Assembly: GCA_050230475.1 (NCBI GenBank)
Contig: JBFLGF010000090.1
Span: 1 to 64,000, forward strand
Direction: 5' to 3'
DNA length: 64,000 nucleotides
From: Ancylonema sp.
Taxonomy: Eukaryota
The notes under the pieces are model-generated. The model was not told the DNA's origin and did not search any database. It worked only from the letters and a program-made list of their open reading frames with translations. The position numbers were made by a program, and so were the translations under genes. Shown here piece by piece: positions 6,501 through 64,000 of this stretch (positions are counted from its first letter, which is position 1; each line of letters begins with the position of its first letter).

Positions 6501-6674
6501 CAGTAAAACCTGTCTAAATGAATACTGTTGGGACCGGGAACAAATATTCCTTTATACAAGTTATTCTTTTAGACAGAGCCGGTTCCTAACAAAATCCCGT
6601 TTTGGGACCGGGATTTTCTATTCTTTCAGAGAGGTTATTCCTTTCCACAGTATTCCTTGAGACGGGTTATAGTG
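6501..6674. mobile_element. MITE, Tc1/mariner (pogo-like) type, copy 1
   Basis: Imperfect TIRs cagtaaaacctgtctaaatgaata / tattccttgagacgggttatagtg followed by TA. Homologous to 11288-11434. Confidence 0.65.
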
Positions 6675-6681
6675 TAGTACA

Positions 6682-9078
6682 ATGATGTGCGAAGCGGATG
6701 ATCTTCACAAAGTGACGCATCATGATAGAGGGAACAAGAGATGGACAGGTGGCAAGTGCACACAGGTCCCCATCTGGATTGCCATCGAATACTCAGCATT
6801 CAGCCGTCGTTTTCGCTTCAGGACCATTTTGGCGTGTCCTTCACGTAAACGTAACCGAAATCGTATTCCGTACATGATGACCGGACCCATAATTGTGAAC
6901 GTAACCGCACCCGAAAGTCAAATAACCGTAACGGGAACCGTAACCGTAACTGTGACCGGGGAGGGGGGAATGCAGGCCGCCGCCCAGATGCTCGAGACCG
7001 CATCCAAGGCCGCTGTGCTTCGCCACGTGGAGGCGTCGATGGGAAGGGCCATGGACGAAATCGCGGCCCGAGAATTCCGCGACAAGATCGAGAAGCTTGA
7101 GTGCGCGGTGGCGGAGTCCCAGTGGCAGGTGGCAGAGGCGCAGGCGAAGGCTGGGGAGGAGAAGAAGAAGAGGGTGGAGGTGGAGGGGAGAATCAGTATC
7201 GAGCAACGGAGGAGGGCGGAGGTGGAGGGGCGGTTGGGGGACGAGGTGAGGAGGAGACAGCTGGCGGAGAACGGGAGGAGGGCTGCGGAGAGTCAGATTC
7301 GGGATGCTATGGCTATGGCGAGTGAGGGGGAGGAGATGAGGAGGGAGATGGAGGGGGAGTGGTTGAAGGAGAAGGGGGCGAGGGAGGGGTTGGAGGGAAG
7401 GGTGGGGGGGGCGGAGAGGGAGGTGGAGGAGGAGAGGAGAAAGAGGGGGGAGGCGGAGAAGAGGGCGGGGGAGGAGGGGGAGAGGAGGAAGAAGGTGGAG
7501 GAGATGTTGAAGGAGGAGCAGAGGTTGAGGGGGAGCGAGGAGCCGAAAGCGAGAGCGGAGGAGAAGCTAAGGAAGGAGATCCAGGGGAGACTAGTGGATG
7601 AAGAGAGGAGGAGACAGGCTCTGGAGGGGAAGGTGAAGGAAGCGGAGACTGCAAAGGTGAAGGCGGAGGCTTTTGCGAGGGAAGAGGTGCGGATAAGGAA
7701 GGAGGAGGAGAAGAGGAGGGGGGAGTTGGAGGGGAGGATAGTGGAAGAGATTAGGAGGCGAGCGAAGGCGGAAATTAAGGCCATGTCTGAAGAGGGGAGG
7801 AGGACGGAGGTGGAGGATAGGTTGAAGGAGGAGGTAAAGAGGAGGGAGGAGGCGGAAGGGAAGGTTGGGGAGATGGAGGGGAGGGTGAGGAAGGCGGAGG
7901 AGTGGGGGAGGTCTGAAAGGGCGAGGAGGAAAGAGTTGGAGAAGACTGCGGTTGGGGCGGAGAGGGCGAGGGTGGGGGCGGAGGAGGAGGTGAAAGTATG
8001 GAGGGAGAAGGTGGAGAGGGAGGAGGCGGGGATGGGGCTGGGGGTTGGGAAAGGGGAGGGGGGAGAGTGCGGGGAAAGTGGGGATGCGGAAGTGGAAGAA
8101 TTGAAAATGGAGGTCGAGAAAGTGAGGAAAGAGTTGGCGGAGGCGTTGGGGGGTGGAGAAGGGAGGTGGGTGGGGGAGAGGGAGGCGGGGGAGAGGGTGG
8201 GGTGGGTTGGGGAGGAGGCCTTGCGGGAACTAGAGGCGAAGTTGAGGGGGGAGGAGGAGGAGAAGAAGGAGATCATTCTGAAGTTGGAGATGGTGGAGGG
8301 GAGGCTGCAAGAGGTGGAGGGGGGGAAGGGGGAGAGGGAAAAGGGGTTGGAGGAGGAGGTGTGTTTGATGGAGATGAGGTTGGGGGAGGAGAAGGAGAAG
8401 GTGAGGAGGTTGGATGAGGAGGTGGCGGAGATGAAGGCCAAGGGGGATGGGAAACGAGAGGTAGATGGGGAGGAGGGGACGGTTGGGGTTCGCTATAACG
8501 AGTCTGAGGTTGGTGCGGAGGTGTTGGGGGGTGAAGAGGGCGAAGGGGGGGTTGGGGTGGAGAGTGGTGACGTGGCAAATCGAGAGAGGTTGGAGTCCGA
8601 GGTGGGGAGGTTGAGGGAGCAAGTCGAGAACCTAAAGGGAGTAAATGCGTTGCTTGCCAATCAGGGGGGGGGGGAGGGGAAGGAAGTAGAACGGTCAAGT
8701 GTGGGGGGGGAGGAGGGGGAGGGTGAGAATGATGTGGAAGTGCGGAGTTTGAAGATGCGGATTGGGGAGTTTGAGAAGGCGCTTGTGGAGTGTAAGTTGG
8801 CCCTCGAAAAGGAGCAAGCGACTCGAAAGGAGATGGAGCACAAAGTGAGAGACGCTTTGAGGCGGAAAGAGGAGGCAGAGCTGAAGGCACTGGCGATGAC
8901 AGAGGCGATGACGACGCGGTTGGGAGGGCAGGGTGGGGTGGGGAAGGCGGGTGGGGCGAGGGAGGGGGATGCGGAGGTAGGGATTGGAGGGAAAGAGAAG
9001 TTGAAGGTTGTGAGCATGATGGATAAGTGGAGGGCTAGGACGAAGGTGCAAGATCTGGGGGGTCTTGGTGGAGTGTGA
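6682..9078 (+). CDS. Long Glu/Arg/Lys-rich coiled-coil ORF, possibly the terminal exon of the ankyrin gene; the true start is probably near 6874-6976
   Basis: 798-codon open frame with heptad-like EE.RRR.E.E repeats and extreme purine skew. No family recognised. Confidence 0.6.
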   Translation: MMCEADDLHKVTHHDRGNKRWTGGKCTQVPIWIAIEYSAFSRRFRFRTILACPSRKRNRNRIPYMMTGPIIVNVTAPESQITVTGTVTVTVTGEGGMQAAAQMLETASKAAVLRHVEASMGRAMDEIAAREFRDKIEKLECAVAESQWQVAEAQAKAGEEKKKRVEVEGRISIEQRRRAEVEGRLGDEVRRRQLAENGRRAAESQIRDAMAMASEGEEMRREMEGEWLKEKGAREGLEGRVGGAEREVEEERRKRGEAEKRAGEEGERRKKVEEMLKEEQRLRGSEEPKARAEEKLRKEIQGRLVDEERRRQALEGKVKEAETAKVKAEAFAREEVRIRKEEEKRRGELEGRIVEEIRRRAKAEIKAMSEEGRRTEVEDRLKEEVKRREEAEGKVGEMEGRVRKAEEWGRSERARRKELEKTAVGAERARVGAEEEVKVWREKVEREEAGMGLGVGKGEGGECGESGDAEVEELKMEVEKVRKELAEALGGGEGRWVGEREAGERVGWVGEEALRELEAKLRGEEEEKKEIILKLEMVEGRLQEVEGGKGEREKGLEEEVCLMEMRLGEEKEKVRRLDEEVAEMKAKGDGKREVDGEEGTVGVRYNESEVGAEVLGGEEGEGGVGVESGDVANRERLESEVGRLREQVENLKGVNALLANQGGGEGKEVERSSVGGEEGEGENDVEVRSLKMRIGEFEKALVECKLALEKEQATRKEMEHKVRDALRRKEEAELKALAMTEAMTTRLGGQGGVGKAGGAREGDAEVGIGGKEKLKVVSMMDKWRARTKVQDLGGLGGV

Positions 9079-25909: not shown

Positions 25910-28900
25910 TTAAATCGATTCGAAGAGGTCTGAAATGGTTTTCTTTGGTGCCGACTCTTCTGCAATAACCTGCAAACAAAAATACACATAATATTAGTCA
26001 ACAGATTTGGCAAATTTGAAAAATTGAAAAATTTGTCAACAAATTTGACTTGCTATTTCATCTTCTACACAACAATGTTGCGACTGACTCCTCTACCCAC
26101 ACTCTCTCATCGCAAAATGTAATCAAATGAGTTGTTGTTTTCCATTTTAACATCTACCTCCTCTCTTTTAGAAGTACTAATCTAGAGCCTTTCCCTTACC
26201 ATTGTCACCATTGTAAGTAGGAGCATAAAATGTGAGAGCATATATTTAGGTAATGTATACGTACACCTTTTATGTATATAGAAGTAAAATGTATGTATTT
26301 GACCACGATCCACCACAATCACAGCTGTATTTTTGTGTTTACATGTGTTTGCATAAGCATATGCAAGTGTGCATATACATACAAATGTACACATGCACAT
26401 ATGCATACATCCATCCATGTAATAAAGCATTTAAGTGTTGCACCCCCTGCGTGCCCGACTCGGTGCTTTCCATTACCTCAACAATTTTGTTGGAGGCAGC
26501 TGGCACGATGAGAGCCTCCACACAAACCTCCGCCACCTGGCAGACCCCCCACCATAACTTTATACTCACACCTCTGTACAGTACAGCCACCCTCATTATA
26601 GGCACCCTCTTGTGGTTGATACAGACGACATCACCTGGCAGAGGGAACTCAAAACGTACGCATTTGTAGTTTGTGGCACGTCCTCTTTGAAGGCACCCGA
26701 ATGCGTTCAACCACAAGAGTGTGCCTCAAGAGAGTGTGACTAAAATATGCTACCTAGAAAGCTGCCCTCCATTTCCCCATTCCCCATTTCCCTTCCTCTC
26801 TTCTCACCTGGAACCTGGTGATAGCTCCTCCAAACAGAGTGTCTTCCCCCTTCATCACTATATTCTGCCTCTGCCCAAGGGGGTAAACAAGGAAAAAGAG
26901 GGGTAGAATGTAGGTCAGAATTCTGATGGGTAGACAGACTTCTGCCACTCTCCCCCCCCCCAAGCTCACCCCATTGTCCGATTTTTTCAGCCCCCCTGGC
27001 CTCACAATCGTGTACTCCAACCCCGACCGCTGCACCGCCAGCTCAGACTGCTTCTTCCTGCAACCAATCAAGGACCGCCCATGTGCAGACGCTGAGTCAG
27101 CGTCCAGTCAGCAACCACCCCCCATGCCTCTCTCCCTGTACAGCTGTCGTACGGAAGTCGATCCAGTGGAGCAATCATAGACTCCAAATCCAGAAAGCGA
27201 CTAACATTTCTACACAACAGTGCCAAAAATATCCCCCTCTACTCTCCTCTTTTCTCCTCTCCCTCCTCTCTTCTCTCCCCCCTTACCAGAACAACAAGCC
27301 GTAAAAGATGTTGAGTGGGAACAGTAGCAGGGACACCCCCAGAGACGTGACAAAAACAATTTTCTTCACTTTCCCCGAGTTCTTGGCTGCAGCAACCAGA
27401 TTCACCACCCCCTCATACTCCTGCAAACCCACCCCCGTCCCCCAACCGCCTCAGGACCCCGCCAGCTGGCACACGCAGGCTGCACGGATACGGTTCGTGA
27501 GGCGCACCTTGAAGGGGCCGAGGGGGTCGAGAATGTCTGGTCGGATGCCTACTGCACACAGGATGACGTCACTGAACCCCAACCGTCCACCCTCAACCCC
27601 CACCCCAGACCCCCGTGAGTTCGGTTACCCTCTTTCCACCAAGACCAGGAGAAAGTTCCTAAGCAGCCCCCCCCCCTTTTTCCTCACCTGTCTCCCAACC
27701 CCGCTTTCAGACTCTCATACTTGTACAGATCGCCCTCCACCACCTGCCACCTCACCCCCAACCGCCCACCCCCAGCCCCCAGCCCCCAAGCTCAGCGCCA
27801 GAGCCGGCCACACGCCACGTCATCAAGGTTAAAGGCACCCCCCCCCCCTACCTGCACTCCCAAAATCCCTCCCAAATACTTCTCCTTCCTCGAATTCCGC
27901 ACCAAAGCCCGCACAGGCACCCCCTTCTTTGCCAGATTCTCGACTAGTAACCTCCCGGTCCTCCCCCCAGCCCCCGCCACAAACACATTCAGCCCCTTGT
28001 ACGGCCCCGCATCGGGTACGGGCCGGGCTCCCCCCACCTCCTCCTCTTCCCCGGGCTCGGGGGCGGTTGGGTCCGCCACGGGGGCGGTTATGCTGCTCAG
28101 TCCGGACCTGCCCTGGGAGTCGGCACCGGTTATGGAGGCTAAGGTTTGGGTGACCAGGTCTTCTGTGGCCTCGGAAATGACTTGCTGGAGGTCGGAGACG
28201 GCCCCAACCGTCTCCTCGATGGCGGTTGGGAGGACGGAGGGAAGGTTGGAGGATCCGAGGGCGGCTGCGACCCGGTCCCCCGCTTTTTGGACGACCTGGG
28301 CCGTGCGTTGGCCCTGGGCTTCGATGCGGGAGTATGCTGAGTCAGCTCGTCGGCCTGCCAGCTCAGCCTGCTTCTGTGTCTCTCGACGTGCCACCTGGAC
28401 GGAGGACTGCAGCTCCGCTGCCTGCTGCTTCACGTTGACACCTGGCAGAGCCACATCCACTCCGGTCATTCACTGGCACCATCTTAAAAGCATCGTAAAA
28501 TCCAAAGAACGGACACGTTCACACATCTCCACGCGTCACATGATTAATATAACTTCATACATATGTAAACATTTTTTTTATTTTTTTAAAGCTTACCAGT
28601 CACGTCCTCTGTTGCATCTGCCAGATCGGAGGCCACCTCCTCCGCTGCCTCTCGGGTTGAGTCTAGAGCATCCTCGACATCCTCACGAACAGCCGCTGAT
28701 GTGCTGTCGACTTCCGCCACGACCACGTCCATGGTATCTTCCACCTGGAAATCCGAGCACGTGTGACACTCCCTATCACTTGCGGAACGGGGGGCTCAGC
28801 ATCGCAGGACGTGCGATGGGCTCGATGTGCAGATCTGAGGGTTGGAAGAACGGTCGTGGCCCCACGAGAAGGGGCAGGTGGTTTTCGGTGAAGGCGTAGT

Positions 28901-42660: not shown

Positions 42661-43120
42661 GTTGCGTGGCAACAAAAAACTCGGAGTCGCGACACGTCAT
42701 GATGGGGAATGCGCCTCCCGCGCTATTGAAGCCGGGACCCCCGAGCGTGTGAATATTTTGTAACCAAAAGTGGTTGCAGGTCATGTAGGCGTCAGGGTTG
42801 ATCAGCATCAGAACCTACGCAGTATTGGACCCACCTCGTCCATGCATTGTACAGAGACTCTTTGTTTTACACCGTCGGTTGGAAAGGATGTTTACCATAG
42901 GAGTATCACCGATGTGAGATTCAAAGTTTCTACGACACGGAATCCCAGAACGGACTTGGTAGTCTGACTAATGAGGGTTTGATTCGCGAATCGAGGACGT
43001 CCAACTCATATTGTGGATGATAGAGGACAAGATCTTTGTACACGACTTGATATAGGACGTTGTCTCGTTCCTTCAGAGGCTTTTCTGGATTTGATATACG
43101 AAAATTGTAGTTTCCGAGTT

Positions 43121-48122
<5,002 letters not shown>

Positions 48123-48660
48123 TGGAGGGGTAGGGTGGGGTGGAGGCGGTAGCGCGTTGGGGGGGCAGTGGTAGGAGGAGCATGTTTGGTGTGTGGAGTG
48201 TGGAGGATGTGAACAAGCTTTGGAAGGGGAGTGTAGTGTAGAATGGCATGGAGGGGGTGGGGAAGCTGGATGGCAAAGAGGTGGGGACTTTTCTCATGTT
48301 TTTTGCTTCATTTTGGAGATGCGGAGTTGGTACCACATGTGGTTGATGAAGAGTCGGTTCACCATAAACCTACAAATGTCGGAAAGAACATTTGTTGGGG
48401 GGGTTGCAATGTTTGTGACCCTTAGGTTGGTTGGAAGATAAGTGCGTCCCATTTTTGTCCATTTTGTCACTGGCTTGTGCATTTGATTATGCGATGCCAA
48501 ACAGGTGGGTTGGATTTGTTAACATTTCTTACCTTGCTTAGTTGACTTTTTGCTATTTGCTAGTGAAGCGTACCAAAACTTGTGTTTTGACAAGGGAATT
48601 GGAGGATTTACAAATTGGACCATGTATGGCTGGCTCATGTGGATTGATTCTCCCCACGTT

Positions 48661-48944
48661 TGACTCTTGGTAGTCAAGCATTTTTCGTACCTACATCGAT
48701 CGTGTACGGCTACACGTGCAAGCACTACATCGTATAAGCACACCGTACACATCGTGATTGTAACAAAGTCCACCCCACCGTACAAGCTATCACATAGCAA
48801 GGCCATCTCCCTAGGCACACACCGTACTCGCATAACCGCGCCTAGACGGCATGCAGTCACCGAGCACCGCTCCCCATCACCGCGCCTAGACGGCATGCGG
48901 TGCCGCAACTCGCGCGATCACACCGCGCTTCAAATTAATGGTCA
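48661..48944 (-). repeat. Candidate 3' LTR of the gypsy element
   Basis: Termini TGAC...GTCA. On the minus strand it is directly preceded by a polypurine tract (GGGGGGGGGAG, 48945-48955). The partner LTR is not in the window. Confidence 0.65.
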
Positions 48945-49690
48945 CTCCCCCCCCCAAGACAGGGAAAAGCTCCCGCGACCCCGGCTTGGTCAATCACCGG
49001 GAATTTTTTTGAATGATCTGCACTTCCCATCATTGCCGAACACCGTTTGCACAATGGTTAGAACACCTACTCCTCCAAGATATTGGTGGGTTCGGGGTAG
49101 CTAGCCCCTCACCCCACTCTTATCTAGAGGAGTTGGTCAAATCACCCACACCGAAATAATTTCCCGCAAGTTTAGTGTGCTACCACCAAAGGATCCACCT
49201 TTGGTCTCTAGGCCTCAAACTTGATTGAGCCTCCGCGCCACATGCGCCAACCTCCTCTCACTTCTCACAATGTTTTTATTGACTTAGTGAATTGAGGTTA
49301 TGTGAGTGTCACACACTTCTCATAGAAGTTGACCAATCACACTTCCTGCATAAAGTTGATTTTGCCACTTAGGAGGTCTTCAATGCCTCCGGCAAAGGCA
49401 TCAGCCAATCCATTGCATTTGCCCCTCATGGAGGTCTTCATGCCCCTCATGGAGGTCTCATGCCCCTCATGGAGGTCTTAGATACCTCCGGCAAAGGCAG
49501 CAGCCAATCCAGTGCATATATGTGATATGGAACTCCATTATCACCATATCCCTCTCATGCAATGTATCCGATGTTACATTGCATGGTTCCGATGTGGGGT
49601 ACAATGCTCTTTCATGCAATGGTTCCACTGTTACGTTGCATGGTTCCGATGTAGAGTCTTTTGTGCTTCACTCTGAAGTAAGTAGCTCAC

Positions 49691-49831
49691 CTAGTGTCGA
49701 GGACAAGTCCAGTTTCCCTCCGGCACTCCTACCAGGGGTGGTGTTAATAAACACCAAGTGTGATACCCCTGGTTACACTTGTCGCACAGCACCATCCGTT
49801 TCGGGTAGGACTGCAACCCACAAACCCGGCA
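49691..49831 (-). pseudogene. PHD finger at the C-terminus of gypsy pol
   Basis: Manual translation CRVCGLQSYPKRMVLCDKCNQGYHTWCLLTPPLVGVPEGNWTCPRH*, one frameshift away from the integrase tail. It is not shown in the ORF track. Confidence 0.9.
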
Positions 49832-49955
49832 TGTGCTGTCTCCCCGCGATCATACAACTCTGGGTAGACCCTCTTGTCTCCCACCGGTATAGTGCAGTGA
49901 GCAATGTGCTTCACTTGCTCTTGCATTGTCGTCCCATCTCTACCCCCAAGAACTG

Positions 49956-51640
49956 CTATCCCTCAGTCCCTGAGCTCCACATCCTCAAGATGTGTGGCCT
50001 TGTGATGACCTCCAGGGAGCTAGCCGTTGGCCGCTTCAGCAGCACGAAGTCTCCAACCTTGAACTTCGCCTTTGGCCTATCCCACCCTCCTCCACGGACT
50101 AGCTTGTACCTCTCCACCTCCCTTTGCTGGGCAATCGCCAGGTTCCTGAATGCCAGTGGCAGAACTTCCTGAAAGATCTGGCCCCTCCTATCTAGGAACA
50201 CTTTCATGGCCTCCACCCCTTGAGTCTCATCAAAGACTCTCTCCTCCTCGTCCTAGATCCGAGCTTGAAAGATCGGAAAAGCATGAAGTATGGCGAGTAG
50301 CCTAGTGACTTCTGCTTGGACAGCCTGTAGCCCATAGCTACGTAAGGCTGCAGTTCATCCCACTGCTCCCCACCTCCCTCAAGCAAGCACTTCCTGAGTG
50401 CTTTCTTCATTGTTTTCACCATCCTCTCCGCCAACCCGTCTGACTGCGGGTGATCCCTGGCTGCAGTCCTGTGAGTGATCTCATGGCGGGCCACGAGTGT
50501 CTCAAACTCTCCTCGAAACTCACCACCCTGATCCGCAATCACCTCCCCTGGTGCGCCATACCTAGACAAGATCTGGGACTTGAACTGGTATGCCACCTCT
50601 TCGGCCCTCTTGGAGGTTGTTGGGATGAGCTCCACCCACTTGGTGAAATGCTCTATGCACACCAGCACATATTTGTTCCCCCTCTCCGTCTCCTCCATTG
50701 GCCCCGCAAAGTCTACCCCCCACCTGTACATAGGTCCTTTGATGGGAAGCGGCTGAAGGTTCTTCCCAGACTCTCTGAAAGCACCCTTGCCCCGAGCGCA
50801 ACTCATACACTCTTTCACCACTTTCGCCACCATCTCCACCATGCCTCTCCACCAATAGGTCTTTCCCAACAAGTCTGCTACCCTCATGACCCCAAAGTGC
50901 CCCATCTCCTCGTGCACTTTCTTCACCAGCCCCCCCCGCTCCCGCGGTCTTGGGATCACTAGCATCCTCCCTTTCTCTCCCACCTTGTACAGGTTGGTTC
51001 CCAGCCACCTGTACTTGGTCCCCCTCCGGTACACCCGATCTCTCTCCAGAGCATCCCACTCCTCACTGTGCTTGCCAGCCTGCAGGTACTCAAGCAAGTA
51101 CTTGTCAGCCCACACCTCCCCCGAGGCTGCGTCAGTGGTCTCATCCACTTTCTTATGTTCCCCCACTCCTAGTGCCAAAAGAGTCATGGCTAAAAGAGTC
51201 TCGGGTCGGAAAGTGATATCACCCCGGTCCCAGTCAGGAACCTCAAGTCCTCCTATGGAATCCATGGGAAACCTGGAAAGGCAATGTGCGTTGCCGTTCT
51301 CTGCGCCTGCCCTGTGCTCCACCTTGAAGTCGAACTCTTGCAGCAACAAAGCCCACCTCGCCAGCTTCCCCGACAGCTTCTTTGTCGACAGGATCCACTT
51401 GATTGGCTCATGGTCGGTCACCAGTGTGAACTGGTTTCCGATCACGTACTGCCTGAAATGTGAAGTCGCCCACACCGCAGCCAAACACTCCCCCTCAAAA
51501 CTAGAATAGTTATTCTCAACTGGGTTGCAACTCCTGCTGGCATAAGCCACAACATAGTCCAGCCCCCGCTCGTCCTTCTGCCCAAGGACTGCCCCCATCC
51601 CCTTCTGACTCTAGTCAGTAGCAAGGTAGAAGGGCTTGCT
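49956..51640 (-). pseudogene. pol: Gypsy RNase H and integrase
   Basis: RNase H motifs LATD*SQKGMGAVL, EGECLA and VTDH. HHCC finger HEEMGH...CMSC. DDE motifs GVDFAG, ADQGGEF and DGLAERM. Tail KFKVGDFVLL. Confidence 0.93.
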
Positions 51641-52660
51641 CCCATCTGGTCGCCTCAGCACCCCAGCCGAACACAGCGCCTCCTTCAGCTTTAGGAAGGC
51701 CTCCTTCTGTTCCCCCCCTCACTCCCAGACCTATCCTTTCCGCAACAGCTTGTTGAGCGGAAAGGCAATGGTGTTGAAGTGCGGTACAAACTTGCGATAG
51801 TAGCTGAATAACCCCGAAGCCCCCCTTAGCGATGACAAGTTTGTAGGTGCTGGTAGATCCTTGACTGCCTTCACCTTCTCCTCCTGCGGCTGCAACTCTG
51901 CTGCAGTGATCTTGTGCCCCAGGAAGTCGATGCTCTCCACAGCAAATAGACACGTCCCTGGGTGCACATTCAACCCCGCTGCTCTGAGTCGTCTGAAGAC
52001 CTCCTGCAGATGCTCCAGATGCTCCTCCAGCGTGCTTCTCCACACGATGATGTCATCGATGTAACACCTCGCAAATGTCAGCCCCCCCAGAATGTGGTCC
52101 GTCTGACGCTGAAAGTAAGGTGGCGCGTTCTTCAGTCCGAACGGCACTACGCACCACTCCCACAGCATCCGCCTGGCTCCCCAGAATGTTGTCTTGGCAC
52201 GGTCCCTCCTACAGTAGTGGCATCTGATGGTACCCCGACCTCAGATCCAGCTTGCTGAAGATCTTTGCCTCCTTCATGACATCGAAGATGTCCTCTATCA
52301 ATGGCAGCGAGTACTTGTCGACGGCGTCAGTGCATTGATCGGCCTGTAGTCCCCGCACTTTCTGAAGTCAGTGTAGTTCCCCTCATCGTCCTTCTTCTTC
52401 ACCACCACAGTAGCCGAAGCATACTTGGTCTGGACTGATTTCCTTGATGAACTTCAGCTTCTCCAGCTTCTCGCACTGCTTCTCCACAAACTCCCACTCC
52501 TTTTCCCCGAGTTTCTGCGGCGGCCTGTAAACCCTCCCCTCCGACACCCCCCCGATGCTCATTGGCTCTCCCTTGAACTGCTCCAGATCCTCCATGCTGT
52601 AAGCAAAGCGACAATTGTTCTCCCTCAGCAGCTCCAACACCAGCAGCTGGTCCCTTTCCT
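51640..52660 (-). pseudogene. pol: Gypsy reverse transcriptase (frameshifted)
   Basis: Motifs [48 protein letters not shown] and SYYRKFV. Confidence 0.93.
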
Positions 52661-53839
52661 TTACCCCCCCCCCACCCTTGATTTTCTTAAAATTCTCAAA
52701 AAAAACAGGTTTTCGGTTTAAGATCCCACCCTTAGTGCTCACTCCTACCCCTGAGTGCTGGCTACCGTTCCCCCCAAACTCCCCCTGCACATCATTTTTT
52801 TTTTTGTTTTTTTATGATTTTCTGAAGTTTTCAGTGGGGCCCCAACCTCCCCACCCCCAACCTCCCCCAACCGCTTCCTCTCCCCCAGAGCAGCCATCTG
52901 CAGCTCTGTAGGCCTCAGTTCTGCTCCAAATCCAGAGTGCAATAGTGCTATGGATATCTCTTTCCCCCATCTATGGTTTTTTAAATCCATGACATCCCCC
53001 CCTAAAACCCCTGTCTGAAAATCCAAATCTTGGATTTCAGATCTGGCCAACTCCAATTTACACTCAGAGTAGTAAAAAGGGCTGGAAATCTTTGATATTG
53101 AGTTTCTGAGTACACGAAATGGCTTGTTGAAATTTCCTACTCTATCCTCACTACCAGCTCGAAAACCTGCTTCTGGTTCCAAAACCCTAGGGTTTAACAG
53201 CACTTTTTCTGAATTCTGGACAGAATTCTGGCCTTTTTGACTGCCTGAGATACCTAGCTCTCCTTGGCTGCTAACTTGTCCAAATTCTGATCTGATTAGT
53301 GATCCTGGCTCCTTAGATACTTCACTACCAGATCTCAAAGTTACAGATTTTTCTGGATGGAGGTGCAAAAACGCCCCATCAGCATCTCCCTCAGCTATTT
53401 TTTTGTCGGGAAGGCCAGCTGGCAATGATAAATGTTGCCCTGAGCTTCTCCCTTCGAATATGGCTGCACCCAGCTTGTTTCCTGGTTCTTCTTAATGCCC
53501 TCTAGCTGATCCCAAATTTTCAGCTTAGCATCGAAGTCTAGCAGCGCGCGCACCACTTTTTGTGCCTCTGCCATCTCCCCTCCCCCTATGAGCCCAGCAT
53601 ACATTCCGTATGCTGGAGGGCTGTCCTTTTCGATTTCACTCCTCTGGTTTTCACCATTGTGTTCCTGATCTCCCCAGCTCCATTCTCGTGAGCCATTGCC
53701 AGTTGCCCCCAACCGTGCCCCAACCGCACCCTCCCCGCAGTCCCCCTTGAACTGCGGCTGGCCCCCCCCAACCCCTGATCTTTTAGGGGTTGGGTGGCAG
53801 CGCCTCCCTAGCTGATCATGCTGGCTTCCCACAGAGCCC

Positions 53840-54790
53840 CCAGCCACCTCATGGTGTTGCCCTCCATGCATTTCCCCAGCCTCTCCGCTCGCTGCTTCGC
53901 GGAAACCACCTCCGCCCGAGTGGTCCCCTCAGGGAACCCCAACAGCTGCTCTTTCTCACCCACATCTGGCTCCTCCCGCCTGTGGGTGTTGGTGTTGTAC
54001 ACCTGCCCCTCCCCTGGGCTCCCATCCTCCTGGGTTCTGAAGGCATAGCTCCCCTGAAAGCTGACGATTGTCGGCATCAGGATCCTCTCCTCTCCTCGGA
54101 AATTCCTCACGACCTGAGGTGGGAAGTCGGTGAAAGCAGGTGCCTTGGGGATGTGATACTCCCTCAAGATCTCCCTCAGTGGTGGGCTTGGCTGCAGATC
54201 CTGCGGAATGGCCTCTTGCAGCTCATCCCGGTCCATAGCGTTCGTCCAACAGTAGCGCAGCCGATGGCTGGCTGCCCCCAACCCCCCTGCGTCCAGAACC
54301 ACCCCCAACCCAATAAAAGACTCTATCAGGCATCTTTGCCAACTCCCCGGGAGAGGTATTTTCCAGAAAGTAGACTGGCGATCTCTCCTGGTGGTGCTGC
54401 AGCCACCCAAGGATGCGCATCAAGTCGTAGAAATACTGAAACCGCTTGTCTGCGTACCCCTCCTGCTTGCCTCCCCTGCTGATACTCTGGCACTCCGAGC
54501 CAGCCCCCACTATGTCGACCTCCCCGTTTTGCGCAATGAGATTCACCAGCGCCATTTCTCCGATCAGCCCCACATCCTGTGGCAGCCTCTTCTCCCAGCC
54601 AATGAATGCCCCCCTGTTGATCTGGCCTGGGTACTCAAGGATCAGCTTCTCGATCACCCCCTCGTTGATCCGGTTGGAGATGAGGTCTCTCTCGGCGCAC
54701 GACACCAGCCGCACCCTCAACCCTGCCGCCAAGGCTGTTCTAGTGGGCCCCAGACCGATGCCACTGAAAAGTTCGACAATATGCACTCCC
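53840..54790 (-). pseudogene. C5 cytosine DNA methyltransferase domain within gypsy pol (one frameshift near 54320-54340)
   Basis: Motifs in canonical order: I VELFSGIG, II SCAE, III PQDV, IV GAGSECQS, VI YFLENT, VIII SHRLRYCWTN, IX EKEQLLGFP, X RAERLGKCM. Confidence 0.88.
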
Positions 54791-55801
54791 TCTTCTGGTG
54801 CCTCCTCCCTCAGGCTCACGACCCGTGTGTTGATCGGAGCTGCTCCCCTCACTGGTGGTCCCACCCACTTCCAGGATCTCTCGACTCTGACCTTTCCCAG
54901 CAACCTCTCCCTTGCCTTCAGCAGCCTCAAAGCTGCAGCCGCTCGCCGTGCTGCATCCGCCTGCTGCACTGCTACCACGCGAAGATCTGCCTCACTAGGC
55001 TCACCAGTCAGCTCCCCCAACCGCGGTTGGGACTAACTTTGCTGTGCGCTCTTCACAGCCACCCCCCCCACCATCACCCTAGGGTCAGGTTGCACCACAC
55101 TCGTGTGCTTCCCCCATCCCTGAATATGTCCCTCCTCCCCCTTTCCCAGCATCTGCTGCGGTTGGGGGCCCCAGCCGCGGTTGGCCCTCCTCCAGCTGCG
55201 GTTGGGTGGTTGCCCCCCCCTCCCTTGGGCTATCTCCCAACTCTATGACCGCCATGCCCTGAAATTTCTCCCAGGCTTCCCCATTACCCCCCCCATACCC
55301 CTCCTCAGCCACCCCGTACTTTTTCCACCCATCTCCTCCTCCAGCAAGAGGTTGGCCTCATCGAGCGCCACCCTTCGAGCTATTTCCACATCCATATCCC
55401 ACCCCCGTGCCGCATGCTCCTTCATCTGCTCCAATAAAGTGAGCAGTGCCAGATTCTGCACCTCCCCTTCCCACTCTAACTCCACAACCCCCTCACTCTC
55501 ACCCCCCCCATATCCCCCTCCTCAATCTCCTGCCACTCATATGAAGTGTCACCGTCCGCATCCTCGAATTGACCCTCCTCAGCCTCTAAGCTGTAGAGAT
55601 CAGACTGCATATGAACCTCTCTTGACCACTCCCTGTGGATCCTACCCAACGCCATGGCCTACATAGGCAGTGTTGAGCGCAGTGCCCTGCACTCCTCCTC
55701 TGTCATCCTCCCCTGAGCCGGTACAACCCCTCTGATCTTTCCCCCCCCCTCAGCCGCTGAGCGATGGTAGTCTACTCTCCATTTGAAAACCTCTACCCAA
55801 C

Positions 55802-56248
55802 CTATACCCCCCCAATAGGCCCAATAACCTCCATCCCCAGTAACACGTCGTAACACTCAGTGTCCACTACGAAAGCTACCTCATTGTACGTGGTCTCGTA
55901 CCGTGTTCCAGCAGCCAGGGTGAATCTCATCTTCTCCCTTGTCATGCGCTGACCCGTCGCCATCTTCCTTGTTGCCGAAACGAATGACACCCCCACTGTC
56001 AACTGCCCCTCTGTGAGCCCCATACGTCTAGCCATCCGAGGGCTAATCATTGGTTTAGTAGCCCCCGAATCCAGAATCACCATGCCCAATGGGGATATGC
56101 CATTCACCACCAACTCCGTGTTTTTCACTGGAAGTGTAGCCACACTCCAGGGTCCCTTCTGCCCTCCCCCTTCTACCCATCCCGCGTGTAGTGGATCCCC
56201 CTCCACTAATGACCTCAACCCCCCGTACTGATCCATATTTTTCTGCAA
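55802..56248 (-). pseudogene. Gypsy aspartic protease
   Basis: VILDSGAT...ISPRMARRMGL and YDVLLGME. Confidence 0.88.
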
Positions 56249-57477
56249 GACCTATGCTTGTAGCTTGTGGTTTCTTTCTAGGGTTTTAAACTTCTCTGTC
56301 AGCATGTTTGCTAGCACCTCCCCTTGTGTTCCCAATCCCCTCCCCATGATCTGAATCATCTTTGCCTGGTCTATTACCGCCCCTGAGTCACCTAGCTTCT
56401 TGAGATCCCCTACCACCTCCAACCTCCCCGTCATAATTGGCATCGTCTCTGCAAGTTTCCCTCCTGGCCTCCTGGAGCCGCTGCCTCTAGTTCCACCAGC
56501 CTCTCCCTCTCCTTGGCATTATAAACCACCTCCTGTACCCCCTCCTCCGCCACCTCTATTGAAACCGGTTCTCGGCCGTATCTGCCGTACTCAACTCGCC
56601 AGTCATAAGACCCGAATTGTAGATCGGTTGCCTCTTGCAATGCTCTACCCGCTGCAGTGTCCATTCCTGGAGGGTATCCCATAGGAGGGTATCCCTCACA
56701 GTACTACCCTCCCCGACAAACACCGCTAGAGCACCCGTCGCCATTGCTGACGGAGGCGTTGTCACCCCTGTGACGCTCATCCCTGGTCGGATCTGAACTG
56801 ACGGCCCTCTATCTACCCTCTCTGAAGGGTAGATAATGTCGCGTGGCTGAGTGTTGTGTGCGAAAATAACTATCCTCGGTCTCCCTCGTCCCCTCCTCTC
56901 TGCCGCCGTCGCTTCTGCTGCACGGACCCCAGTTGCGTGCACTGCCCTCTCTGCTGCCTCTTCCTGCTCCAGACGTTGCCCTACGTTCTCGATCACACGC
57001 CTCAAATCAGGTGCCCCCGGTGATCTCGGTCGTGTCCCCCCTTTAGCTGCCCCCGCACTCTGGGGTCCCAGCTTGCCTTCCAGGCTGCTACCCTCTCCCC
57101 TCTCCCTCCCCTCTAGCCTCTCGGAAGTCAGAACTCCCTCCTCCAGCCCGCCCTCCCCTAGCGCGTGGCGCCATCATCTTGAATGGTGGCCTGACGTGCA
57201 CCACTGGCACGTCCATGACAACCCACATCTTCCCCACGTAGAATCCCAGTTCCACTCCGTTTACATCACCCTCCTCAGCCACCCCCATTGCCAGCATCTG
57301 GCGTGGGTAACCAGGGCTGAAGAACTCTTCATCTCCTCGGCCCAGCCTCTCCTCAAACTCTGGAGTTCTCCTTCCTGGTGGCCCTGGTACCGCCATGGCC
57401 AACCCCTGACGTGGCCGCTTGGCATCAGGTGCCCCCCCGGGGTTGTAGTTCTTGGGGCGAAGCTCCGGGTGCTTTGC

Positions 57478-58811
57478 CTAACACTGCTCCTCGGTGTGGT
57501 TCTGTTTGTCACAAAACCTGCAAGGTGCCCCCTCCGTCATGTGCACCCGTGGCATGGACATGGCCACCCCTCTCGCCGTCCCAAATCTGGCGGCGAAGGG
57601 TGCTTTCATACCCTTCCCGCGTCTTGCTGTTGCGGTCTTGAGTGCCTCCCTCAGCCTCCCCGCCGTCTCCTCCCTCGTCCCCGTGGGACAGTTGGCAGCG
57701 CGGTGCCCCAGTCTGTCACAAGTGAAACACTTGACAAGGCTTTTCCCCCCCATCCCTCCTCCTCCAGTCCCACCCCCTCCACTCCCAACCCCCCCTCCTC
57801 CTCCATTCCCATCCCCCCCCCCTCCTCCTCCCTCTCTCGGCTTCCCTTTCCCCTCCTCCCGTCCCCCTCCCTCCTTTTCCCCCTCTTTTTGACGCGGCAA
57901 CAGGCCAAACATCCGCAACTCCGCATCCCGCGACATCTGCGCTCTCTCCTGGGAGGTGGCAATATCTCTGACATCTGCCATACTTATCTTGGGAAGTCCT
58001 CCTCCATCCCGGCGCTGCTCCTCAGCCCGAAGCTTTGGGCCGACCACCCCCCGCAACCCTCCCAGCAAACAATCCTCATAAAAGCACGCTGCCTGACGCG
58101 CGCTGACCATATGTGGAACGAGGTTAACAGTTATCCGGAACAAGTCCTCGTAGATGGAGTTTGAGGTAGCTCCTGCTGGTGGTCTGAAGTTCTGGAACTC
58201 CCCTAACCATTCTGACCCCGCGGTTGCAAATCGCGTCCTCAATCGCTGGAAGAATCCCTTGAGATCAGAGCTTCCAGAGGTACTGCTGGAGGCCCCTGAA
58301 GCCCTGAGGTGAGTCGCATCAGGTGCCAACTCGCCTTCTGCCCATAGTATACGCGCCAGACCACTCTCACTATTTCCACCACTTGCGCTATTGCCAACGC
58401 TGGGTTATCACGGTCATGCGGGTCAATGGACCAGCGGTAATAATCTAGAACCAATCTTGCCTGCCCCTCTACGTGGCCTGACATCCGCTTGAGGACCTCA
58501 AACTGACCATATTCCCCACTAAGGAATTTTTGGAGATTACGCTTCTCTGCCTCCCACATATATTTCATATTTTGGATAAATTGGCGCTGCGCCACCCCTC
58601 CTCCTCCTGAATACTTGGGCACAACCAAAGTACTCTCCATCTCTGCCTCCTCCTCTCAACCCGCGAAATACACCAACGAATAAGCCGCAAACATAGGTAC
58701 CGGAGGTACAAAAGCCGGTGGTTGATATATGACAAGCTGAAAATTCTCCACTTCGGCCTCTCCCTCTGAGTTTGCCGAACCCTGAGAATCAACTGATCCT
58801 GCTTTTAGCAA
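57478..58811 (-). pseudogene. gag: Gypsy gag with two CCHC zinc knuckles
   Basis: VPKYSGGGG capsid-like start, CFTCDRLGHRAANC and CRFCDKQNHTEEQC. Frameshifted. Confidence 0.8.
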
Positions 58812-59249
58812 TGTTACGTGATAGGTGTGCACGATCGTGTTAATCTTTCCGTACAAGGAACTTCGTCTCTCAAAGATGATCAATGACAAGTATAGTGTTG
58901 GAAGAATTATTATTGAATGGTCGGCATCGTGTAGGTATACCACGATGCCTCATCCAAAACAAGAATCTACAAAGCGTGCCGACGGTCGTATCGACGGACC
59001 GTCGGCCTATCAAAACACAACAACAGTCAGATCCTGACACCGGCACATGCCGGACAGTCTGACAAGACATAGTCTAGATTCGGAACCATCTAGACCGCAC
59101 GTGCTACAAACCGGCACAACGAAACGTCATATTCGGGTGCCCGGACATAAGTCCGGCCCCTCAATATAAGCACACCCTAGGAACCGGTGTTACACTAACA
59201 GTCTGGACTAGCACACTTGCAAACATGGCTATCCGATATTATTCCTACA
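58812..59249 (-). repeat. Candidate 3' LTR of the copia element (left edge 58812 or 58896)
   Basis: On the minus strand a PPT-like GAGGGGGTG directly precedes TGTAGGAAT at 59249. Candidate opposite termini are TGTTACG at 58812 and TGTTGGAAG at 58896. Confidence 0.6.
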
Positions 59250-62200
59250 CACCCCCTCGGATGCCATGCCAAGTTTGGCATTGAGTCAGCACCAAGGGAC
59301 TACCCTATCTACAGCTAAGTCATGGCGAAACCATGACATACGTAATATGAATGGCAACACATATGCCAGAATTCATGAACAACTGACCACTCTAGATGCA
59401 AGCAGATCTGCAACTTTTCAGGTGTCCTTAAGTGTTTTCAGGGCAGAAAAAAGAGTGGGGTGACTTAGCTGGATAGGCGAGCGTAGAGAGCCCTCCACAG
59501 GTGCATTTTGCAAGAAGAATAACAGAACATACACCCCCTGCCAAACATAGCATGGCAGCCGAAAATCTCCTAGAACTTAATGTGCACCCCCATTTCAGTG
59601 AACCCTCCCAAAACCTATAGACTTTCCGTGTCTGTCAAGTAAGACTTGTGGAAGAGCCTTAGTGAACTATCGGCTGGTTGATTGGCCCCTGCCAGAGATA
59701 CACATACTTCAGCCTGCCAGTTTTGTGACACTCTCTCACCACCCAGTGGTACACCACAACAACATTGAAATGCTTGGCCTTCTGGCGCTGGACTGGGTTC
59801 TAGATCATTGAGAGTGCGGCTGTTGAGTCACTGTAAACTGTAATTTAATTAGGGAGTTTGAGCTCATGCAGGAGCGACTTCAGGTAACAGTATTCCTTAG
59901 ACACACTACAGGCAGCAATATATTCAGCCTCTGCTGTACTCTGTGCGCGACTGTAGACTCTGTGTTTCTGTGACTTCCAGCTCAATGCAGTTCCCCCAAC
60001 AGTAGTGACCCACCCTGTGACCGACTTCCCACAGTCATACTGCAGCTATTCCAACTAGCATCACACCAACTAGCATCACAACCTCTTCCGCGCCTCACGT
60101 AGCATATTCCGTGATCCACTCTTCCTTTTAAATATCTAAACAGTTGGTGTAAGGCTTTGATGTGAGCAGTCCCAGGATTCCCCATGTGTTTTGCCAGTAC
60201 CCCCAGTGCATGCGCAATATCCGGTCTAGTGTTTTTCATTGCATAAATGAGTGACCCAATTTTTCCCCGGAATTCAGTTATCTGTACAGGTGTAGGGGGA
60301 GTTAGAGGTTCATCTTCTTGGTGAAATGTCAGTCCAGGTGGTAAGGGTAGTTTTGTAGGGTTACAGTTTGCCATGCCAAAACGTTCCAAAACCTGCTTTA
60401 TGAACCCTCCCTGATGCAACGTGAGCACCCCTTGTTGTCTGTCCCTTTTCACTTCCACCCCCAGGATATGGGTTAGGGCCCCAAGATCCTTCATTTTGAA
60501 TTTCCGAGATAGTTCCTGTTTGAATGCTTTAATGACCATGGTGTTAGGACCAACTATCACCTGATCATCTACGTGTATCCCCACTATGATCCGTGACTGT
60601 CCTGTGCCCCTGGTGTATATGCATGTGTCCATAATGCACTGTTTGAACCCTATAGTGAGCATGAAGGTTGTGAACATCTCACCCCAGACCTTGCTACTCT
60701 GTTTCAGTCCGTACAGTGCCCCCCTCATTCTCAAAACTTTTCTCTCTGCCCCTCCCTCTATCTCCATAAATGGTGAAATTTTCATATATACTTCTTCGGC
60801 CAGTCTTCCATGCAAGAAAGCAGTCACCACGTCCATCTGTTCAATTTCCCAACCCTCTTGATTCGCAATAGATAGTAGAATGAGATATAGAGGTACTATC
60901 TACTACAGGTGCGAATATTTCATTATAATCAACTCCTTCTTGTTGTAGAAAACCCTGAGCGACCAGTCTGACTTTATATACTTTCAAGGGTTCCCGTGGG
61001 TGTGTATTTTGTTTTGAATACATATTTGCACCCCACAGCCCTTTTACGTGGTGGAAGTTCACACCCTCGAAAGTGTTGAATTCCCCCAAGCTTTTCAGCT
61101 CCTCCTGGATAGCAACTAACCACTGATACTAGTGTGGCCTCGTCATGGCCAGGTCAGCGTCAAAGGGTCGGAGGAGTCAGCAGACATGGACACCATGCAG
61201 AATCCAGGGTCAGAGGGGCCGTTGAAGCCTGTGAAGAAGCATGTTGCTTCCCAATCGTCGTCCTGAATGGCTGCTTCCAGCGCCTGGTCATCGAACTCCT
61301 CTCCATCATATCAAAAGACATCCCCAAAGTGGGCAAAGTTTGCCCTCCTCCTTCCCATTACTCTCTCAGCTATGCTCCCAGCATTCACCCCTTGCCCCCC
61401 CTCTTCATCCCCTCCTTGAACTTCCTCCTCCTCGCCTGCCACACCTACGTTGTTGACCCAGATTGGCTGTCAGACAGGCTCAATCACAGCGATGGGGACC
61501 TCAGCAGCTGGTGGTGGCGGAAACTGTAATGCTGGGATCTGGGCTCTTGGGTTGTTGTGGGCGGCTGCTGCTGCTAGCATTGCTGCTGACTGCTGCTGGT
61601 ACTGCTGCTGGCGTTGCTGCTCTCACTGCTGCTTGCCCTGTCACCCCTCCAGCCTTAGGCTCATCATCTGTGTCGGGGACCGGCTGGAGAAAGTGTTCAT
61701 CTGCTTTGGCCTCGACCTGGGGAGCTCTCCCCCCCATGAGTCTCGGGTACCCCGGTACTTCCTCAAAGACACGGACGTCTGTCCGCACCATCACACCGGC
61801 TCTGAGCGGGTCGAAGATGTTGTAACCAGCTTGATCTGCTGCCAGCCCAATGAAACCCCAAAAGCAGTCCTGGCAGCATACTTGTCCCCTTGTTTATTTT
61901 TATCATGCCCAACTTTCAAATACTGCACTAGGCAGCCAAATGTGTGACTTCTGTTCAGTTTGATTTGGCGTCCCGTCCACTTTTCAATAGGTATCCCCCT
62001 TGTCAATGAACTAGTGGGGTAGCTGTTCCTTAGCCAATTTGCATGCATTAGTGCCACATCCCAGTATGATTTAGGCAGTTTAGACCACATCAGCAAACAT
62101 CTCATCTTCTCCATCAGTGTTCGGTTCAGCCTTTCACACATACCGTTCTGCTGAGGACTATAGGGGGCAGTCAGTTCATGTTTGATGCCTTTATCCTCAC

Positions 62201-64000
62201 AATAGCCTTTCCACTCCTTGCTGGTATATTTCCCTCCTCCATCTGTCCTGATCGACTTTAAACGGCAGTCCTGACTCAACCTCTAGTTTCTGTCAGTGAT
62301 GCGCGTTTGACTGAGAGCATCGCTCTTGTGCTTGAGAATAGATACTGTTGACAGTCTAGAATTGACCTCTATCCCTGTCTGAGCATAATCAAACCCTCCG
62401 TGCATTGATCTGACACACACCAAAAGGATCAGATCTAGATGCAACCTCCCCATTTTTGGCATAGTGGTCACATCATCGCTAGCCATAGCATGCCCCCTCT
62501 GTCCCATTTTCCCCATACAGCAGATCACACAATCCTTGACCACAGTCAACTCTTCCTGACTCAGTCTCGGTATGTCCCCACGTCTGGCCATGTTTGACAT
62601 GGCTGGTATACCAGGGTGACCCAGCTTGCCATGCGAGAGCACTATGGACAGATTTGCTTGCAGACCAGATGAACCAGGCATGATGATAGATGCATGCAGC
62701 AATGACAGACCATTCCTCTGCCTGCTGACATCAGCCCATTTCTGTCCATTTTTAGTCAGTGGACGTGCAGAGCAGTGAGAGGGACGACGAAGAAGGAGTC
62801 GTCGTTCTTCACTCGAACGTGCACGAAGCCTGTCCCCTTGACCTTGTGGGGCGTGCCATCAGCCGTGTGGATGAATGAATGGTGCATCAAGACGTTGGTG
62901 TCGTACTCGACGAAGTGGTCTTTGTTTGTGAAGACGTGATCGGTCGAGCCTGAATCAAGCCACAGATGCGAGCAATCAGTTCCAACTGCCATAGCAATTC
63001 GTGCATCAAATGAGAATGCTGCATAAGCCAGGGATTCGGATGCATCAAAAGGTGTGTCTGAACGTGCAGCAAGTCGAGCCTCAGCTTGGTCACGAAGATT
63101 AGAATCAGGTGCAGCCAATGCCAGGTCAGATCTACGCTTCATGCATTCTACCAATGTGTGTCCAAGCTTATCACAGTATCTGCATTTTGGTTTCGGACTG
63201 CCACTTCCCTGGCCAGCCGATCTTCCCCCTCCCCCTTGCCGTTGGTGTCCACACTGCGACAGCTTGTGGCCGATCTGGTTGCAGCCATGGCACCTCATTT
63301 GCGGACGTGTAGGGCAGTCCGATTTTAAGGTGGCCATACTGGTTGCAGCCGTAGCACTGAAGTTCTCGTCAGGTCGCGACTTCCGGGACCGCCACTCCCA
63401 CCTGGTCGACACTTGGGCCAGCTCCGGAGCTGCCCAAGTAACCCCCTTTTCCCACGAAATTGGCCTGCTGCCCTCCCGGCAACGCCCCTCTCCTCTTCCG
63501 GTCGTTGCAGACCTCCCGTCGATCGCCAGCTGACAAAGTGCTGACGGCAACGGCCTGCGGGATCGTGAAGAGTGTTGGCGCACAAACTGCCCAAGACATC
63601 ACACTCTCCCGCGCGCTGTAGCGAGTGTTGAGGGAATTTCAGAAAGTTGATCGTCTGCTTCGCAAGCTTGACTGGCTCTCCCAGATGCCCTAGACGATAG
63701 TGCAGCTCCTGAAGCCGCTTAACGTAGTCGCTCAGGTCCTCCGCCTCTCCCATGATAATCGCCGTGAGCTCAGCCTCAGCGTTGGCGATCTCAATGGCTC
63801 CCTGAATGTCGTAGAAGGCTTTCAGGGCGTCCCACATATCCGCTGCAGTCTCGCAATTTCGTACGTGCGTTAGCTCCCCCGTCTGGAGGTGTTTGACGAT
63901 GTACGCCATTGCAGCGATATTCTTCTTCGACCAGACCTCTCGAAGGAGAGTCTGTCGACCGATGAGCTGGGTGCGTGCCGTGACCGTTCGAGCGACGTCC
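58812..64000 (-). mobile_element. Degenerate Ty1/copia LTR retrotransposon whose 5' end runs off the window
   Basis: Order: gag (TAADMWDALK, CCHC knuckles), protease (WLDSGSTDH), GAG-pre-integrase (HGKLGHPG...CVIC), integrase (IRTDGGG, YSPQQNGMCERLNRTL), RT (RLVAQGF, MDVVTAFLHG, ALYGLKQS, HVDD), then an RNase H remnant. Confidence 0.93.

Follow-up and report, generated by a model that had tools for sequence, protein, structure and literature searches.

A PHD finger at the end of pol in a decayed Ty3/gypsy retrotransposon of Ancylonema, and its possible role in integration targeting

A decayed, multi-copy Ty3/gypsy retrotransposon with a PHD finger at the end of pol almost certainly occupies part of the minus strand of the window, the stretch of 64,000 nucleotides analysed here. 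The PHD finger (49694-49831, minus strand) is genuine, and in most intact relatives of the element it directly follows the integrase in one ORF. Considered as a whole, an explanation in which a PHD carried on the integrase would bind the tip of histone H3 and so target integration is fairly probable. Relatives came from a protein search that used the RNase H-integrase ORF as query and was directed at longer sequences; it gave 202 matches, and 120 of these were listed and analysed. Because the selected lengths were 820-2340 aa, this set favours long intact ORFs. PHD, integrase, methyltransferase and other domains in the relatives were called with our own profiles.

The PHD finger and its stop codon close pol at 49691-49831 on the minus strand. 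Read from 49831 to 49694, the motif is CRVC-x9-VLCDKC-x3-YHTWCL..PPL..VPEGNWTCPRH, followed by a TAG stop at 49693-49691. This confirms letter by letter the PHD pattern with a final His that a sequence-only reading had proposed, and Pfam PF00628 recognizes it with 43.6 bits (E 2.9e-11) against a cut-off of 24. A regular expression for the finger has a single match in the six-frame translation of the window, against none in 100 block-shuffled windows. Seven ligands of the C4-H-C3 pattern are present, with a Trp two residues before the seventh, and the eighth is His, giving C4-H-C2-H. The window finger has one extra residue after the sixth ligand (49745-49748) relative to 109 of 109 PHD-bearing relatives, and three bases at this place are missing in some sister contigs. 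An AlphaFold model of the polyprotein, built on an 8-row alignment, reached a mean pLDDT of 36.6, too low to be of use.

The same reading described the finger as fused to the integrase tail, which fails for the window copy and holds for the family. The frame 49960-49691, in which the fusion was claimed, contains two internal stops, and the PHD makes up only its last 46 codons; because both stops lie upstream of the finger, it is unfused in this copy. The integrase C-terminal tail (49831-50276, minus strand), traced by tblastn of P0002, P0009 and P0204 and by sister-contig indels, is spread over two frames and interrupted by stops. Compared with the intact relative P0002, its frame changes at ~50276, at 49980-49989 and at 49831, and stops and frame changes recur throughout pol. 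Frame-shifting indels relative to the window copy occur at every one of the three breaks in contigs of all four runs examined, which cover the window's own organism and two metagenomes; each contig spans fewer than all three breaks. P0204, the nearest sister protein and 82-91% identical to the window, holds integrase tail and PHD in one frame across two of the three breaks. The N-terminal half of P0204 is unrelated, and the sequence suggests another insertion in the integrase tail of that copy. Programmed frameshifting at the breaks was considered and rejected, since sister copies and relatives differ there; on the contigs alone, the breaks may be mutations or assembly errors. Where the window copy has T and most sister contigs have C, 10 of 12 sites are CG or CHG (background 36%) in a comparison whose rows were hand-picked from 40 of 43 table rows. 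This decay fits ordinary host methylation and silencing and does not require an enzyme of the element. The window copy is dead and, as a copy, ordinary.

Next to the tail lie the integrase H2C2 zinc finger and D-D-E core (50276-51097; Pfam PF17921 and PF00665; own profile, 399 bits), whose D, D and E residues, invariant in 112 of 112 relatives, are all present in the window translation. The remaining domains follow on the same strand: RNase H plus connection, with stops (51097-51731; Pfam PF17917, 110 bits, and own profile); reverse transcriptase (RT), in pieces (51731-52658; Pfam PF00078, 62 bits, and own profile); a C5 cytosine methyltransferase domain with a frame break at ~54330 (53808-54876; Pfam PF00145 and own family profile); an aspartic protease (55805-56251; Pfam PF13650 and PF13975); and gag, also in pieces, with a CCHC zinc knuckle at ~57685-57732 (57454-58655; Pfam PF00098, collinear with the gag of P0199). 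The resulting order, gag-protease-methyltransferase-RT-RNase H-integrase-PHD, together with the D-D-E core, is that of a Ty3/gypsy element. Downstream of the PHD, a 3ʹ non-coding part with a likely terminal repeat, placed by the end of the flank contig at 48714 and a depth peak, extends over 48685-49690 (minus strand) and contains short tandem-like repeats at 49363-49517, 49552-49657 and 48831-48901.

The 3ʹ end of the element falls near 48685. A single contig with a depth of 68.6 covers the unique flank up to 48714, thousands of short contigs lie beyond it (35,635 contig pieces over 13 kb in run X1), and repeated sequence starts near 48680-48715. Summed contig depth is highest at 48736-49169; this quantity is not a copy number and supports only the statement that there are many diverged copies. 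The last exon of the neighbouring gene stops at 48120-48122 on the plus strand, tail to tail with the element, and the earlier estimate of ~540 bp between that stop codon and the 3ʹ end was roughly right, the measured distance being 560-590 bp. The gene, a putative PP2C gene by its PP2C-like motifs, has several exons at 42983-48122 (plus strand) and a long (AT)n tract inside it at ~46560-46830. At the other side, the 5ʹ end of the element is hidden or lost, because a far more abundant, different repeat begins just upstream of gag, beside a copia pol. Neither a terminal repeat pair nor a target-site duplication of the gypsy element was found in the window, where that 5ʹ end is hidden or lost. 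An inverted 7-8 bp match between 48689 and 58936 was dropped, as its upstream arm is part of the far more abundant repeat upstream of gag and its flanks mismatch. A decayed copia-type element (58800-64000, minus strand; RVT_2, rve, Pol_BBD) abuts the gypsy 5ʹ end, and a very abundant non-coding stretch at ~58800-59900 is its likely terminal repeat. CpG observed/expected ratios range from 0.31 to 0.71 and are uninformative on self-methylation, since element, flank and copia element are similarly low. In a glacier metagenome (run X5), pieces of 260-300 bp from the element family cover 48962-54670 at ~87-95% identity, and 47000-48301 is uncovered. Elsewhere on the plus strand, the window holds an epimerase-family exon (198-827), an ankyrin-repeat exon (5762-6460), and ORFs of 801 and 426 aa without a Pfam match (6673-9078 and 27619-28899).

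Conservation among the relatives carries the case for an integrase-PHD unit. A PHD is present in 110 of the 120 listed relatives, and in 109 of the 120 it follows the integrase profile directly and in the same ORF, at the place where, as had been proposed, chromoviruses carry a chromodomain. The gap between the two domains is 6-11 residues in these 109 and exactly 9 in 99 of them; seven of the ten listed relatives without a PHD terminate no more than 20 residues past the integrase match. These 109 proteins, the sister-contig indels and the read-through in P0204 place the PHD in frame with the integrase in the family, and on this point the earlier reading withstands its own refuting condition. 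P0011, from a Coleochaete scutata transcriptome, is a complete RT-to-PHD ORF. Seven zinc ligands are invariant in all 109 listed PHD-bearing relatives, and the eighth is Cys in 98, His in 10 and Leu in 1. Integrase identity to the window is 31-59% over the listed family and 56-59% for the ten closest listed proteins (P0001-P0010), all of which end in His. On an integrase tree (quick IQ-TREE, 117 rows, with four proteins of <80% integrase cover excluded), the window and the 10 His-ending proteins form one branch (SH-aLRT 97). Judged from these alignments, His as eighth ligand is a conserved mark of this 11-member clade; the notion that it reflects decay was rejected, as His occurs in all 10 clade relatives.

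Other arrangements also occur. P0115, a more distant Gypsy protein, has its PHD between RNase H and integrase rather than after the integrase, and the order in the legend for Gypsy-7a_cRei likewise suggests a PHD before the integrase (PMC9940879). P0157 (cluster of P0012; RT-RNase H-integrase-PHD) is labelled uncultured cyanobacterium, a label that probably reflects eukaryotic contamination of a bin. No relatives were found in viral contigs. Metagenome contigs yielded one, L001; its methyltransferase follows RNase H, and its 10.4 kb contain no pair of long terminal repeats.

The methyltransferase of the window reaches 22.6 bits against PF00145 in one half (cut-off 22) and 107 + 138 bits against our own family profile. 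The presence of such an enzyme in the element alongside the PHD, part of the sequence-only reading, was upheld by the survey, in which both domains share one ORF in 70 of 120 listed relatives. In 40 of the 120, the ORF begins too near RT for the presence of a methyltransferase to be judged, and in five the enzyme is absent despite at least 500 residues before the first RT, RNase H or integrase domain. The listed relatives carry it at two sites: in 6 it precedes RT, and in 68 it is placed between RNase H and integrase. A profile built from the six before-RT domains finds 68 of the 68 others (median 254 bits), and by this profile evidence the two sets are one family. Among 71 domains, the catalytic Cys is kept in 69, the motif VI Glu in 70 and the motif VIII Arg residues in 70 and 69; the residue preceding the catalytic Cys, usually Pro, is in many cases Glu (GWECQ in 26 of 71, GSECQ in the window). 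Compared with solved HaeIII, a plant methyltransferase and DNMT3A/B/C, P0197 gave weak matches throughout (15-25 bits).

The ORF to which the enzyme belongs bears on how it could act. The three closest methyltransferase domains found (P0197, P0198 and P0199) are 49% identical to that of the window. P0199 holds gag, CCHC, protease and methyltransferase in a single ORF. Both P0197 and P0198 terminate directly behind the methyltransferase, P0198 at most one codon away from the stop in the window, and the ORFs of P0001-P0008 begin 16-139 residues ahead of RT. The methyltransferase of the window's sub-family thus likely ends a separate Gag-protease ORF; it is possible that the stop after the methyltransferase in the window copy arose by chance. 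This two-ORF layout is not universal, because P0009 and P0010, which belong to the same clade as the window, hold everything in one ORF.

The likely ligand of the PHD was approached through solved structures. At E<=1e-4 there are 58 matches, all PHD-containing proteins, with DPF2/3, ATXR5, KDM5A/B, WSTF and UHRF1/2 as the best; ING, BPTF and TAF3 are absent from these 58. The former are classed as readers of the unmethylated tail and the latter as readers of K4me3, in part after the accessible text of PMC4225485 and PMC5415848. In KDM5B-PHD1, L325, D328, P347 and W351 contact Ala1/Arg2, and their loss weakens or abolishes H3 binding, according to PMC4225485. When these positions were mapped by hand from the alignment with solved matches, the 109 listed relatives proved to have a hydrophobic residue at L325 in 108, Asp at D328 in 103, Pro at P347 in 104 and Trp at W351 in 105. 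The window has V, P, W and D at the L325, P347, W351 and D328 equivalents, that is, an Ala1 pocket and an Arg2-binding Asp. The methyl-K4 cage Trp, expected two residues before the His ligand, is Gly in the window and Trp in none of the 109, so that the aromatic cage of H3K4me3 readers of the ING/BPTF/TAF3 type is missing in all of them.

Because the Ala1/Arg2 pocket is kept and the cage Trp is absent, the PHD quite probably binds the free N-terminal tip of H3 and not K4me3. Active avoidance of K4me3 is a weaker claim than binding of the H3 tip, since acidic K4 residues are missing in the window's clade. Such residues, together with an "acidic wall," read unmethylated K4 in KDM5B and BAZ2 (PMC4225485 and PMC5415848, in the text accessible). 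The D308 equivalent and the acidic wall each occur in 0 of 10 members of the window's clade and the E321 equivalent in 1 of 10; the acidic K4 contact and acidic wall occur in 15 and 31, respectively, of the 99 other listed relatives. The PHD loop is net positive in 7 of 10 of the window's clade. PHDs of the KDM5-PHD1/UHRF1/ATXR5 type, the best solved matches (E 5e-12 to 1e-7), share with the window the LCD motif, the P-x-G-x-W pocket and the lack of a cage Trp, whereas the window's clade differs in its His eighth ligand and in having no acidic K4 contacts.

In the mechanism that we propose, the PHD, joined to the integrase in intact relatives, would grip the free N-terminal H3 tip and thereby hold the integration complex on nucleosomes, probably at a distance from promoters with methylated K4. 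The methyltransferase would be made with Gag, packed into the particle and set to methylate the new cDNA; an enzyme acting on cDNA in the particle was proposed for such elements by de Mendoza et al., in the accessible text of PMC5890265. Reader and writer would then work at separate steps, one with the integrase and the other in the particle, because they likely occupy separate ORFs in the window's sub-family. DNMT3A couples an ADD domain to its catalytic domain; the reader and writer of the element are probably not coupled in that way. That the PHD really affects target choice has a slightly better than even chance, and self-methylation of cDNA by the element's enzyme a chance just short of even. 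The window copy itself speaks against this mechanism, with only ~570 bp between its end and the stop codon of a gene. In Chlamydomonas, the insertions of a PHD-bearing Gypsy are intergenic 2.6 times more often than expected, a bias that may be selection according to its authors (PMC9940879, in part). The methyltransferase of a Klebsormidium relative showed no activity in yeast, a result called inconclusive by its authors in the available text of PMC5890265.

The same features could be read differently. The PHD may act as a general clamp on nucleosomes or DNA and make integration more efficient, or it may cap the integrase structurally, in either case reading no specific mark. The window's clade, with a mostly basic loop and without acidic K4 contacts, would suit such a role, and the constant distance between integrase tail and PHD (9 residues in 99 of 109 listed) suggests a packed module. 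However, over 94% of the 109 listed sequences retain the residues of the Ala1/Arg2 pocket, and in KDM5B the loss of pocket residues weakens or abolishes H3 binding (PMC4225485, as far as accessible), which makes a clamp or cap unlikely beside a finger that binds the H3 tip. A different possibility is a reader-writer pair in cis, in which the PHD, once the element has inserted, directs or activates its methyltransferase on chromatin and has little role in target choice. This would make sense of the 70 of 120 listed relatives with both domains in one ORF and of the 68 listed proteins in which the methyltransferase, between RNase H and integrase, lies near the integrase-PHD unit. Yet PHD-bearing P0044, P0077 and P0085 are among the five long-N-terminus relatives without a methyltransferase, the window's sub-family likely has the two domains in different ORFs, and polyproteins of the LTR-retrotransposon class are normally cleaved by protease. 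We consider this improbable.

If the PHD were a fragment of the host, captured passively and without function in the element, this would account for its being out of frame in the window copy, and for a clear integrase match in just 2 of the best 150 matches from a library of 1.84 billion proteins. This reading is largely refuted by conservation, and hence very improbable: the PHD sits in frame, in a fixed place and with invariant ligands across integrases 31-59% identical to the window's, and sister copies differ from the window copy at the breaks. Targeting through an H3-binding PHD on the integrase remains the most likely function.

Among known systems, KnitGypsy-Dnmt3 (the "Gypsy-DNMT3" of streptophytes) is likewise of the Ty3/gypsy type and encodes a C5 methyltransferase (PMC5890265, in part). 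Unlike the window element, in which the enzyme likely ends the Gag-protease ORF, it has its enzyme in the Pol ORF, again as given in the accessible text of PMC5890265. "PHD" has 0 occurrences in that paper's text and three supplementary files, and the drawing in its Fig. 4c may show one. KnitGypsy-Dnmt3 has DIRS-like split terminal repeats; in the window element, whose 5ʹ end is missing, the 3ʹ kilobase shows only short tandem-like repeats. P0027 of K. nitens shows the protease-methyltransferase-RT-RNase H-integrase order of the window and groups with the window's relatives in one branch of 7 domains on a FastTree methyltransferase tree (support 95); we infer that it is a copy of KnitGypsy-Dnmt3. 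REM1 of Chlamydomonas reinhardtii reportedly has a PHD in a separate antisense ORF. In the same alga, Gypsy-7a_cRei resembles the window element as a green-algal Gypsy with a PHD in Gag-Pol, is active and has an intergenic bias, and its PHD has been proposed to reduce harmful insertions (PMC9940879, in part). In contrast to the window element, its legend lists no methyltransferase and places the PHD before the integrase (PMC9940879); the two are likened here by description, not kinship.

Chromoviruses also carry a histone reader, the chromodomain, at the integrase end, where it steers insertion to heterochromatin (cited in PMC6673714, in part). The chromodomain reads methyl-K9, whereas a PHD of the window type would read the H3 tip, and neither the window tail nor the Pfam domains given for the 120 listed relatives include a chromodomain. 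EpiLTRs, LTR elements that combine a reader with DNA methyltransferases, are the nearest concept, though with a chromodomain; in the accessible part of the preprint (bioRxiv 10.64898/2026.05.21.726589), they pair a chromodomain with DAM and a DNMT4-sister enzyme, whereas the window element combines a PHD with a single cytosine enzyme. The window shows no chromodomain and no match to our own second-methyltransferase or Tudor-like profiles, and so falls outside the EpiLTRs. PHDs have been called widespread in retrotransposons (PMC6673714, PMC8557442 and bioRxiv 2021.11.30.470311, each in part), and integrase-like transposases of Ginger1 can also end in a PHD (PMC2836005, in part). The accessible text of the REXdb paper (PMC6317226) does not mention PHD, and that of PMC5408684 and PMC12344493 holds nothing on PHD-methyltransferase pairing. 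This pairing is stated in no paper found, with subscription papers, Repbase and figures outside the search. A PHD in a Gypsy polyprotein (PMC9940879) and DNMT3 in a Gypsy polyprotein (PMC5890265) are already published separately, in the accessible parts of these papers. The idea is therefore less new than the earlier reading implied, and the regular pairing is not spelled out in searchable papers. If the PHD steers integration, green-algal retrotransposons would have a second chromatin-reading route to safe sites besides the chromodomain. The proposal is open to experiment, as natural proteins of this kind are available intact and laboratory strains of Chlamydomonas harbour an active PHD-bearing Gypsy.

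Through the survey, methyltransferase-bearing Gypsy elements are also known beyond Klebsormidium, in chlorophyte-labelled sequences, where the domain set is richer. Among the listed relatives, 75 proteins form a branch of the integrase tree (SH-aLRT 90) that includes all listed Cymbomonas, Pleodorina, Tetrabaena and Chromochloris labels (5 proteins). Most of them carry a Tudor-like domain (an Atlas lead, score 0.88) and/or a second methyltransferase-like domain after the PHD, and the cytosine enzyme, PHD and second methyltransferase-like domain occur together in 45 of 120 listed relatives. The branch order is RT-RNase H-cytosine methyltransferase-integrase-PHD-Tudor-like-second methyltransferase-like, as in P0028, P0029, P0030, P0071, P0109, P0118 and others, and in L001:2-7915. 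A chlorophyte-labelled layout of PHD, Tudor-like and second methyltransferase-like domains was not found in the accessible part of the EpiLTR preprint (bioRxiv 10.64898/2026.05.21.726589). Of 9 proteins tested for the second methyltransferase-like domain, 5 match PHROG 799 "DNA methyltransferase" there (E 3e-9 to 2e-4), and 2 of 22 weakly match the Pfam adenine family D12; with motifs that are degenerate in many cases, the domain is at best a putative active, adenine-specific enzyme.

Labelled proteins with a before-RT methyltransferase are Klebsormidium, and P0011 of Coleochaete groups with them. A chlorophyte/streptophyte split of the two layouts is a lead, since taxon labels are few. By the labels of relatives alone, the host of the window element would probably be a streptophyte alga. 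A broader history can be put forward tentatively, at somewhat less than an even chance. One Ty3/gypsy lineage, predating the chlorophyte-streptophyte split, would have kept a PHD-tipped integrase and one cytosine methyltransferase family throughout, while the enzyme moved between two sites in the polyprotein. In the chlorophyte branch, a Tudor-like reader and an adenine-type methyltransferase would have joined them, so that one retrotransposon held two readers and two writers, and the PHD would provide an H3-tip targeting route parallel to chromodomains. Some relatives in the chlorophyte-labelled branch also carry a G-patch before the integrase.
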